Below the pieces are notes generated by a model that ran no database searches, was not told the DNA's origin, and saw only the letters and a list, made by a program, of their open reading frames with translations. This document shows positions 55,048-56,610 of a stretch of 64,000 nt of DNA, in pieces. The position numbers and the translations under genes were made by a program. Position 1 is the first letter of the stretch, and every line of letters starts with the position of its first letter. The stretch is from Escherichia phage RCIP0363: sequence record PV464739.1. One strand, given 5' to 3'.

Positions 55048-55081
55048 TCACACTATTAATTTGCACTATGGGATTTGCACT

Positions 55082-55555
55082 ATGAGTCAAGATTATGTAG
55101 CAATGCCTGAAGACTTTGAAGACCCGCGATTTGCAGAGCATAATCAGGCATTATTCGATGAGTTCATTGACCTTGTTATTCAGGGCCATGACATGCGCGC
55201 AGCTTTTGCACTAGTATTTGGCATGGAGGTTGCGACCGATAACTACACTGGCCAGCGAATCCTCTGCACGCAACGCAATCCTTACTACAAGATGCGCTAC
55301 AAAAAGCGTATGGAAGAGATGCCATTGAAGGAACTGTGGAGTGTAAAGAGTTCCATCCACAATTTAGTGAAGCTTGTGCGTGATCCAGAAGTCGCGGCAT
55401 CAGCCAAGCTTAATGCCATTCGTGAACTGAATATCATCTACGGCATCACGATGATTGATGAAAACGGCAATAGCAAAATGGGCCGTTCCATGGATGATTT
55501 CTACAAGGATTTTGGAGAGGCTGCAAAAGAGGGTGAGCAATTCTCCCGCCACTAG
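55082..55555 (+). CDS. hypothetical protein (candidate DNA-binding regulator or small terminase-like protein)
   Basis: ATG 55082 overlaps a motif copy. Function is speculative, based only on the gene being bracketed by the motif array. Confidence 0.4.
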   Translation: MSQDYVAMPEDFEDPRFAEHNQALFDEFIDLVIQGHDMRAAFALVFGMEVATDNYTGQRILCTQRNPYYKMRYKKRMEEMPLKELWSVKSSIHNLVKLVRDPEVAASAKLNAIRELNIIYGITMIDENGNSKMGRSMDDFYKDFGEAAKEGEQFSRH

Positions 55556-55570
55556 CCAATTTGCACTATA

Positions 55571-55608
55571 AAATGGCCCTAGAACACATTTTCTCCACTT
55601 CTAGGGCC
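55571..55608. terminator. 12-bp perfect inverted repeat ATGGCCCTAGAA/TTCTAGGGCCAT with 14-nt loop
   Basis: Read directly; sits between convergent genes. No T-run, so it may be a protein-binding palindrome rather than a terminator. Confidence 0.4.
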
Positions 55609-55669
55609 ATCGGTAATACGACGGGGAAGGCTGCAGCCATAAACGCGTTAGAAAGTGTATTATTATAAG

Positions 55670-55933
55670 TCATCTTTTAGTCACTTTACGTAACAATTTA
55701 CGACCTTCCGCCGTCCAGTCGAACGACTCCACCAGCAGATTTGCACTATAACCTAAGACGATGCGCCCTTTCTCGTTATCGACCCGCCAACAAGTCTCGA
55801 ATAGCATTCGATTTGCACTATTAACTATCGCCGCAACGCGCGTTGGGTAAGCGCAATTTGCACTATGATCATAAAGGGATAAGGTGCGACCACTTCCGAT
55901 GGACAACGTAGCGATGAGAATAAGCGTATTCAT
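55670..55933 (-). CDS. hypothetical protein (CpG-rich island)
   Basis: ORF carrying three antisense motif copies, each translated in-frame as S-A-N. Confidence 0.3.
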   Translation of the reverse strand: MNTLILIATLSIGSGRTLSLYDHSANCAYPTRVAAIVNSANRMLFETCWRVDNEKGRIVLGYSANLLVESFDWTAEGRKLLRKVTKR

Positions 55934-55983
55934 AAGCCACCAATTTGCACTATGAAAAGCGACCCCGAAGGGCCGCCATTCGA

Positions 55984-56610
55984 TTAGATGATCTGGAAGG
56001 TGTAGGACTTGTTGCCGAACTCGAAGTTCAAGCGTCCAGCTTCTTTAAGCTTCATGCGGAAGCGAATGTGCTTGCTATCCGGTAAGCCCAGCGCGGCGAA
56101 CGCTACGCGGACCGATTTGAACTCGCCTACACCCTCGACCATAACGGCGTTACGGGTGAGACGCTTTTGCGCCACTTCCTTGTTATCCCAACTTTTTGCA
56201 ATACCTTCGCTATTCGAACGGCGATGGGAAGGAGTTCCATTTTGCACTACGCAATTTGCACTATCGTTTAAACCGCTCTTAACGAAGGCTTCATACTCTT
56301 CGTCGGTCATCGCGTCGAGTTCTTCCTGCGTCGGCTCGGCCTTTTTAACGACCGCACGCGCCTTATGCGTTTTTACATCGCTGGACACTTCCTCGCGCGA
56401 CTTCGCGTCGGGGATGGGCGATTCGTTGGACGGCTCATCGAGTGCGTTTAAGGATTCGATTAACGCTATTACGCGAGTCTCGGCGGTCCGGCGGTCCGCA
56501 AATTTTTTAATCGGCTTCGAACCGGAATTTGCATTATAAAATGCAACGAGGTCGGCGGTCTTAGTTGCGATAACGTCGCCGCTAGTCGAGAAACGATTTA
56601 AGCTAACCAT
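55984..56610 (-). CDS. hypothetical protein (CpG-rich island)
   Basis: 208-aa ORF with balanced composition; the antisense ORF is junk-like. Confidence 0.4.
   Translation of the reverse strand: MVSLNRFSTSGDVIATKTADLVAFYNANSGSKPIKKFADRRTAETRVIALIESLNALDEPSNESPIPDAKSREEVSSDVKTHKARAVVKKAEPTQEELDAMTDEEYEAFVKSGLNDSANCVVQNGTPSHRRSNSEGIAKSWDNKEVAQKRLTRNAVMVEGVGEFKSVRVAFAALGLPDSKHIRFRMKLKEAGRLNFEFGNKSYTFQII

Follow-up and report, generated by a model that had tools for sequence, protein, structure and literature searches.

A One-Orientation Repeat Array Surrounds the Predicted Small Terminase Gene Near the Left Genome End of Wifcevirus Phages

Introduction

How small terminases choose viral DNA is poorly understood, and several well-studied phages show no specific binding in vitro. 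In phage lambda, the cosB repeats R3, R2, and R1 are bound by gpNu1, and in SPP1 the pacL and pacR boxes are bound by G1P; lambda cosB, SPP1 pac, and P22 pac span roughly 20–300 bp. The pac site of phage P1 occupies 162 bp, and its hexamers, which are targets of Dam methylation, lie on both sides of the cut. The small terminase (TerS) of Pseudomonas phage E217, the family represented by Protein Data Bank (PDB) entry 7UXE, is a decamer (PMC9611059); for TerS proteins of this type the structure is solved and no recognition sequence is known (PMC9611059). Many Chi sites of P1 also fall within its terminal redundancy or close to it, and terminal clusters of Chi are known in both P1 and the lambdoid phage LLS (PMC12315714). 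Here, we analyze an array of short repeats, all in one orientation, in a 64,000-nucleotide stretch of the genome of Escherichia phage RCIP0363 (PV464739.1). This whole stretch is referred to as the window, and coordinates are those of the window unless another genome is named. The array runs from 55059 to 56537, in and around a gene predicted to encode TerS (terS), and no description of it was found in the literature searched.

The locus both resembles and departs from each of the described systems. As in lambda cosB and SPP1 pac, multiple short repeats lie on the packaged side of the cut, beside or overlapping the small-terminase gene and its promoter (PMC9611059), although recognition by TerS is putative here. 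The lambda and SPP1 sites, in contrast, are ~100–300 bp long, have mixed orientations, and form one bent complex (with IHF in lambda), whereas the present array consists of ~11 one-way copies spread irregularly over 1.5 kb within a 3.85-kb direct terminal repeat (DTR), and terS is uncoupled from the large terminase gene, terL. P1 pac, in which seven TGATC(A/G) hexamers flank the cut, is similar in having a short oligomer repeated many times around the packaging start, but in the present array every copy is on the same side of the cut, and none contains GATC. With the terminal Chi clusters of P1 and LLS the array shares the form of a one-orientation, irregular series just inside a genome end (PMC12315714). 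In Kylevirus and in phage MTx the true Chi complement forms an array of this P1/LLS type at the same place; the Wifcevirus word, however, shares four of eight positions with Chi. Finally, E217 and the other Pbunaviruses have a homologous TerS (7UXE), a terS gene apart from terL, and a putative pac point just upstream of terS, but, unlike Wifcevirus, they reportedly package by the headful mechanism and have genomes that are circularly permuted (PMC10913387).

Relative to these systems, the array offers a defined 9–11-bp word in ~10 copies that is shared across genera and lies beside a homologous terS and a mapped genome end. The BASEL phages Bas98–101 grow on E. coli K-12 derivatives, so that TerS–DNA recognition and packaging in myoviruses with long terminal repeats, which has been little studied, are directly testable.

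A Non-Random Array in and Around terS

The window belongs to Wifcevirus, E. coli myoviruses related to Pbunavirus, and the region is 95–97.6% identical to that of the E. coli Wifcevirus phages kaset, Bas98–101, Mansfield, WFH, WFC, and ECML-117. The 11-mer core of the repeat, ATTTGCACTAT, is present in eight exact copies (at 55059, 55073, 55559, 55739, 55811, 55856, 55943, and 56254), all on the plus strand, and a ninth copy, ATTTGCATTAT at 56527, differs from it at one position. Exact copies are confined to 55059–56537, with none elsewhere on either strand of the 64 kb. When one mismatch is allowed, the sole match outside the array is at 61205 and the minus strand of the window has none; 1.8 matches are expected, and not one of 100 shuffled sequences reached 10. 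A first, sequence-only reading of this DNA had reported nine or more copies of a 12-mer, always on the top strand. The strand assignment is borne out, as is the count for the core at up to one mismatch, but the exact 12-mer, AATTTGCACTAT, has five copies (55058, 55558, 55855, 55942, and 56253, all plus strand; 0.01 expected). The comparison with shuffled sequence on both strands that the same reading had proposed shows the motif to be confined to the array.

With two further degenerate copies, TTTTGCACTAC (56240) and TTTTGCACTAG (55204), the array has about 11 members (eight exact and three degenerate). The consensus of the sites is (G/A)ATT(T/C)GCACTA(T/C). With a weight matrix built from 29 sites in three phages, all 11 matches of at least 13.8 bits in the window fall in 55061–56529 on the plus strand; ten full-strength copies score 18–21 bits and the 55204 copy 15.6 bits. 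By simulation, such clustering has a chance probability of p<5e-6. Spacings between copies are irregular, ranging from 14 to 355 bp over the 1.5-kb span, and a Rayleigh test detected no 10–11-bp helical phasing in the Wifcevirus array or in those of the relatives PA1 and Kyle. In phage Mansfield, the 4.1 kb of genome that lie beyond the window contain no copies of the motif. The array is thus real, strongly non-random, and, as described below, evolutionarily conserved.

By homology, the plus-strand gene in the midst of the array (55082–55555; 157 aa) is terS. Its product matches PDB chain 7uxe_A ("Small terminase") over residues 3–147 with E=9e-33 (phmmer), it falls in the phage family phrog_4783, and the equivalent gene is annotated as the terminase small subunit in the Mansfield record. 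Two tandem σ70-type promoters of terS, TTGAAC-17-TATAAT and TTGAAT-17-TATAAT, occupy 55001–55047 on the plus strand, with −10 boxes that end at 55029 and 55047. Each matches 10 of 12 consensus positions, which agrees with the strong promoter that had been proposed at this place, and the 55001–55047 stretch is invariant in seven genomes. As had also been noted from the sequence, two tandem copies of the motif (55059–55069 and 55073–55083, plus strand) follow the second −10 box and extend into the ATG at 55082; they lie over the GGGA ribosome site and the ATG, with the second copy covering the start codon. The position is operator-like, since the leader copies overlap the ribosome-binding region of terS as an autoregulatory operator would, and repression is a candidate function. 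The spacing of these two copies is 14 bp in the window and 15 bp in the WFC clade. A third plus-strand copy, at 55559–55569, begins 3 nt past the terS stop codon, where the first reading had placed one, and precedes a terminator hairpin, for which the WFH and WFC records carry an annotation corresponding to 55574–55609. The degenerate copy at 55204–55214 (plus strand) lies inside terS and is read there as A-F-A-L-V. As a separate observation, the two leader copies together make a five-codon mini-open reading frame (mini-ORF; M-G-F-A-L-stop, 55068–55085) whose TGA overlaps the terS ATG, and a 1-nt insertion in the WFC clade brings the first ATG of this mini-ORF in frame with terS.

Selection on the DNA Word

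Downstream of terS, the array continues through two minus-strand ORFs of 87 aa (55670–55933) and 208 aa (55984–56610). Three copies, all on the plus strand, are hosted by the 87-aa ORF: 55739–55749, which is abutted by CCACCAGC, the complement of Chi (together 55729–55749); 55811–55821, read as V-N-S-A-N and found at the homologous position in PA1 and Kyle; and 55856–55866, read as D-H-S-A-N. The 208-aa ORF contains a second tandem pair on the plus strand, formed by TTTTGCACTAC at 56240 and ATTTGCACTAT at 56254 (56240–56264), and the degenerate plus-strand copy ATTTGCATTAT (56527–56537), which is more degenerate still in WFH and ECML-117. The sequence-only reading had placed all of the copies beyond the one after the terS stop codon antisense within the two ORFs and had each read in one frame, as S-A-N or N-A-N. 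Most are indeed antisense to these ORFs, but the plus-strand copy at 55943–55953 is intergenic, 10 nt upstream (on the minus strand) of the start codon of the 87-aa ORF; and the frame in which the copy at 56240 is read (V-V-Q-N) differs from that of the others.

Taken across all sites, the motif is read in at least four frames, (NAT)-AGT-GCA-AAT, nTA-GTG-CAA-AAn, CTT-GCA-CTA, and TTG-CAC-TAC, and is found between genes as well, while S-A-N is preceded by H, N, Y, or D, the very residues that NAT codons specify. From this codon context, the conserved unit is a DNA word and not a protein segment, selected at the DNA level; the earlier suggestion of a DNA signal superimposed on coding sequence is thus well supported. 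In one protein, with 29% identity between genera, three of the motif sites occupy homologous positions, and GCACTATTAA occurs at the aligned VNSAN/LNSAN positions in all three of the window phage, PA1, and Kyle. The 56240/56254 pair lies in a variable, dispensable linker of the 208-aa protein that is gapped in homologs, and in ECML-117 the pair is missing and the linker replaced.

The arrangement of copies relative to genes also bears on the proposal that they are promoters recognized by a factor specific to the phage, or sites resembling −10 elements at which a phage-modified RNA polymerase would pause. With its A at position 2 and T at position 6, the reverse complement, NATAGT, is similar to a −10 hexamer, and one copy is 10 nt upstream of the start of the 87-aa ORF. 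However, the copies are found in this 1.5 kb only and before no other gene in 68 kb, inspection of the sequence revealed no −35 or extended −10 element, and, read on the plus strand, they run against their host ORFs, which is not how phage-specific promoters would be arranged. Moreover, the phage-specific promoter motif of the Pbunavirus 14-1 has a CTGGG core and is unrelated (PMC10914365). A promoter role, which the first reading had listed among its candidates, is in our estimation highly improbable.

Position of the Array at the Genome End

The window crosses from the unique right end of the genome into the DTR, which, from the Mansfield and WFH records, extends over ~3.85 kb in this isolate (54722–58570). 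The Mansfield record (MK903282) was opened at a 3,673-bp DTR predicted by PhageTerm (PMC6753283), and its base 1 corresponds to window position 54722. The WFH record holds the repeat at both ends and terminates at ...GGGCATGGGTCTTT, which corresponds to window position 58570 and to the base that ends the Mansfield DTR. The array is located in the left third of the DTR. Its first copy is 337 bp inside the left boundary at 54722, which is fixed by these two independent records, and all copies are 0.3–1.8 kb from the left end. Palindrome analysis and comparison of seven Wifcevirus genomes revealed that the left end is an AT-rich palindromic element, ATTTTAAATTAATTTAAATTAATTTTTTT (54722–54750), which is kept in all seven and leftward of which the sequence diverges.

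A similar AT-rich element, CTTTAAAATTAATAAAATTAAT, is present in Pbunavirus (E217, locus L005, 3393–3415; JG024, locus L024, 624–646). In JG024 it lies ~50 bp from the reported peak of pac read starts and is followed by tandem GTAATTTGG repeats; this phage packages by the headful mechanism, and a putative pac site ~600 bp upstream of terS is the starting point of 36 of 161 long reads (PMC10913387). In Mansfield, WFC, WFH, Kyle, and MTx, which represent three genera, terS begins 357–377 bp from the left end. The terL gene is 8.6 kb from terS, beyond the window (Mansfield 9484–10911). Because of the JG024 read starts and this conserved distance from the left end, we infer that the terS-proximal region is the packaging start across the group, with terS far from terL (PMC9611059).

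The neighborhood of the genome end also contains features that could belong to a replication origin, with the array as its iteron set beside the replication-gene block. The repeats are direct and in a single orientation, an AT-rich palindromic stretch is nearby (54722–54800), and in relatives the genes for primase and helicase are just upstream of terS. There is precedent in the ori/crr of phage P4, where dispersed short repeats are bound by the primase-helicase. We consider an origin very unlikely nonetheless. Instead of the regular spacing of iterons, the copies are irregular and unphased over 1.5 kb and three genes; no initiator gene was recognized among the neighbors; the AT-rich stretch is separated from the copies by 340 bp and falls at the genome end itself; and E217 and MTx have homologous replication genes but no motif.

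The Array in Related Phages

Searches with tblastn located TerS homologs in Pbunavirus, Kylevirus (the Pantoea phages PA1 and Kyle), Myosmarvirus (the Serratia phage MTx), and others. Across these relatives synteny is kept, with replication genes followed by terS and then by leftward small genes. In three Kylevirus-like lineages, PA1, Kyle, and the metagenomic contig L157, the core T[TC]GCACTA is found on the terS strand from inside terS to 650–1,000 bp downstream. PA1 has 10 copies (locus L004, 4269–5107), Kyle has 9 within 900 bp (580–1476) and none elsewhere on either strand of its 69.6-kb unique genome, and L157 has 9 copies of GCACTA (1965–2837). Thus, in all four lineages, including that of the window, the array flanks and enters terS. 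The TerS proteins of PA1, Kyle, and L157 are 42–52% identical to that of the window, and the four motif-bearing lineages share PEDFED...FA at the TerS N terminus.

The GCACTA motif is absent from MTx, from the Salmonella phage PCSE1, from E217, and from another relative, L159. The Pbunavirus terS region, which is without GCACTA, has GTAATTTGG and CCACCA(A/T/G)C repeats; in E217 and JG024, GTAATTTGG is a one-strand repeat of their own, with ~5 copies around the putative pac point. The presence of the array follows that of the 87-aa gene, as it was seen in Wifcevirus, Kyle, PA1, and L157, which have the gene, and not in L159, E217, or MTx. Scans of IMG/VR with the Wifcevirus and Kyle TerS proteins returned known genomes only. 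A loose scan of viral contigs for TTGCACTA-N2-30-TTGCACTA was also tried, and yielded pairs attributable to chance and tandem repeats in coding sequence, none of them close to a TerS homolog.

A Candidate Packaging Recognition Array

Our preferred, though tentative, interpretation, to which we assign somewhat less than an even chance, is that the array is a recognition array for TerS of the pac/cosB type, in which the two leader copies serve as an autoregulatory operator. The sequence-only reading had listed an operator for the 55082 product and terminase recognition repeats as separate roles; because that product is, by homology, the small terminase, the two merge into a single hypothesis, which gains from the context of the array (at a genome end, wrapped around terS, and conserved across genera), with binding itself a candidate property. 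In such a scheme, about 11 independent sites would bind the TerS that is encoded in their midst and would constitute the cis signal of the packaging-initiation region. Within the concatemer, rings of TerS would assemble at the sites on either side of terS and beyond it, and this loading would mark the DNA as that of the phage and position the large terminase to cut at the AT-rich left boundary ~340 bp upstream, after which packaging would proceed rightward through the array. The two leader copies would, in turn, let TerS switch off its own strong, host-type promoters.

Several properties of the locus are those of a pac or cosB region: the array adjoins a genome end, and a small-terminase gene is present and linked to it. 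The leader copies are positioned to block both the terS promoters and the ribosome site, which fits the harm that has been reported from excess TerS (PMC9611059). The retention of terS at the packaging start, though it is parted from terL, is the pattern expected if a cis site and the protein that binds it co-evolve. The GTAATTTGG repeats of E217 and JG024, moreover, are what lineage-specific terminase sites would look like.

A number of observations weigh against TerS recognition. In vitro, the E217 TerS failed to bind DNA appreciably (PMC9611059). Rather than having the compact (≤300 bp), fixed or phased geometry of pac and cosB sites, the array is at least five times longer than known TerS sites, irregular, and unphased, and a pattern of this kind extending over 1.5 kb suits signals that are read singly better than it does one nucleoprotein complex. 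A different repeat, ATACGGATGATACG, lies nearer the cut site than the array does, and the rightward direction of packaging is presumed and may be otherwise. The distribution of the motif is ambiguous with respect to TerS similarity: the L159 TerS is 49% identical to that of the window, closer than that of PA1, yet L159 is without the motif, and identity in the N-terminal, presumed DNA-binding, domain fails to separate motif-bearing from motif-less phages. Among Wifcevirus genomes, 19 of 110 columns are variable in sites compared with 159 of 1,491 in flanks, so that conservation is no higher in the sites and, if anything, slightly lower, although at 95–97% identity within-genus conservation is uninformative as a test of function. 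Lastly, ECML-117 does without the 56240/56254 pair.

The distribution of Chi in the same phages raises the main alternative, that the array is a Chi-like, one-orientation signal for an enzyme that enters at the left end and moves rightward, whether RecBCD or another helicase-nuclease of host or phage. Several copies would then raise the chance of recognition, and the effect would be end protection, recombination between the terminal repeats, or both. In relatives, co-oriented copies of CCACCAGC, the exact complement of E. coli Chi (5'-GCTGGTGG), interleave with the array in the same 1–2 kb. Kyle has 9 of its 13 plus-strand copies at 255–1972 of locus L014, PA1 has seven copies (L004, 3861–5433), L157 has seven (1625–3322), and MTx has four exact plus-strand copies (locus L003, 179–1276). 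On the plus strand near the left end, CCACCAGC is in the active orientation for RecBCD entering there, according to the orientation rule (PMC12315714), and the terminal Chi clusters of P1 and LLS provide a precedent (PMC12315714). The GCACTA array itself has the formal properties of a Chi array, being clustered just inside an end in the single orientation that would be active from it, with irregular, unphased spacing and without regard to coding context. The phages can also be arranged in an apparent replacement series, in which MTx (Myosmarvirus) has Chi only, Kylevirus has both words, and Wifcevirus has almost only GCACTA. The one exact CCACCAGC in the DTR of the window, at 55729, and the near-copies at 55549 and ~55936 each abut a GCACTA copy.

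The word is not the host octamer 5'-GCTGGTGG, however. Alignment of its reverse complement, ATAGTGCAAAT, with Chi gives matches at four of eight positions, and for this reason wild-type RecBCD should not read it. We know of no enzyme that recognizes the GCACTA word. In addition, particular sites have stayed in homologous places through long divergence, which a signal for which any copy will do does not need; the two copies placed exactly in the terS leader suggest protein binding with a regulatory effect; and co-location with Chi may merely mean that both functions are needed near the end. Overall, we regard a Chi-like role as unlikely. Its most specific form, in which ATTTGCACTAT (or 5'-ATAGTGCAAAT, when read on the strand that has its 3' end at the left terminus) would be a new Chi-like word, an orientation-dependent signal for a helicase-nuclease that processes DNA ends, functionally interchangeable with canonical Chi and replacing it, is doubtful, and equally doubtful is the order of replacement it would imply, from Myosmarvirus (Chi only) through Kylevirus (both) to Wifcevirus (new word only). 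A Chi-like array would represent a new class of end-protection word. Under the terminase and the Chi-like interpretations alike, the array marks cis elements that any synthetic rebuilding of these phages, or of their Pbunavirus relatives, for therapy would have to retain.

The leader pair, operator-like and downstream of two strong promoters, would equally suit a sequence-specific protein other than TerS, of phage or host origin, that organizes or silences the early terminal-repeat region. Such a protein might act as a repressor or roadblock for the terS promoter and the leftward genes or as a nucleoid-type coat of the repeat. One site is just upstream of the start of the 87-aa ORF, the array is confined to lineages that carry the 87-aa gene family, and the unrelated repeat family ATACGGATGATACG (54653–54843 and 3079–3339) suggests that further proteins bind specific sites in this phage. 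However, the analysis turned up no candidate for the binder. The 87-aa protein looks secreted, with its signal-peptide-like N terminus and two conserved Cys residues, and the 208-aa protein, the one other conserved neighbor, retains its conserved domain in motif-less phages and is therefore a poor candidate. Most sites, moreover, are intragenic and point in the same direction whatever gene starts nearby, and a host factor would not explain the absence of the motif from MTx (Serratia) and PCSE1 (Salmonella). As far as we are aware, none of the consensus sequences of IHF, DnaA, σ54, CRP, PurR, TrpR, and Tus fits the motif. We judge a binder of this kind to be rather unlikely.

Other Features of the Region

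Homologs of the 87-aa ORF are present in Kyle (gene 2, E=2e-11), PA1, and L157. The signal-peptide-like N terminus and two conserved cysteines that it shares with its Kylevirus homologs suggest that the product is a small secreted or periplasmic early protein. The 208-aa ORF is conserved beside terS across the whole phage group, from Wifcevirus to Pbunavirus, with invariant FADR.TAE.R and LP.SKHI.FR motifs. Its homologs in Kyle, E217, and MTx have BLASTP E values of 1e-30 to 6e-49, and similar terS-adjacent ORFs are found in PA1, L157, and L159. Sequence and profile searches of Pfam, PHROGs, NCBIfam, and PDB gave no function for this protein, a search of 5.8 billion proteins returned near-identical Wifcevirus copies only, and its single-sequence AlphaFold model is unusable (pLDDT 39.5).

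The word AAATTTGCAGTACACT(A), which had been pointed out as related to the repeat, is present at both of the positions given for it. The first copy of the full word, AAATTTGCAGTACACTA, is at 58593–58609 (plus strand), 23 bp outside the right DTR boundary, and the second, located by sequence search, is at 58690–58706 (plus strand). Both look like σ70 promoters in their sequence (TTGGTA or TTGTAC, 17 nt, TACACT). Since they score only 12.2 bits each on the array matrix, compared with 18–21 bits for the ten full-strength copies, their link to the array is uncertain. The first copy falls within a 44-nt stretch (58574–58617), directly outside the right DTR boundary and outside the array, that can be aligned with 3607–3651 of Kyle locus L014, at the same place relative to the DTR end. 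A further sequence, GTACACTA, is rare and is found beside repeat boundaries, occurring in Kyle only at 184 and 3636 in 69.6 kb and in MTx at base 9.

The 14-mer ATACGGATGATACG flanks the left DTR boundary in direct and inverted copies (54653–54675, 54787–54800 on the minus strand, and 54830–54843) and survives in Wifcevirus genomes that have unrelated sequence around it. A further ~8 copies, distributed over both strands, are clustered at 2708–3339 (including 3079–3339), so that the 14-mer probably marks the sites of another DNA-binding regulator.

GC skew in the region tracks gene orientation and carries no information on a replication origin. A plasmid origin of the sequence was considered and rejected, there being no match in PLSDB, and a scan of 54300–59000 for known RNA families gave one chance-level match only. 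Just right of the DTR is a length-variable microsatellite with a 7-bp unit, CGACCCA, of which Mansfield has five tandem copies (locus L001, 3843–3877) and the window essentially one (~58741). Just inside the right DTR boundary, (G/T)AATCATT occurs in several copies within longer imperfect repeats, both in the window (58425–58512) and in Kyle (L014, ~3465–3590), and these copies might belong to the recognition of the right end.

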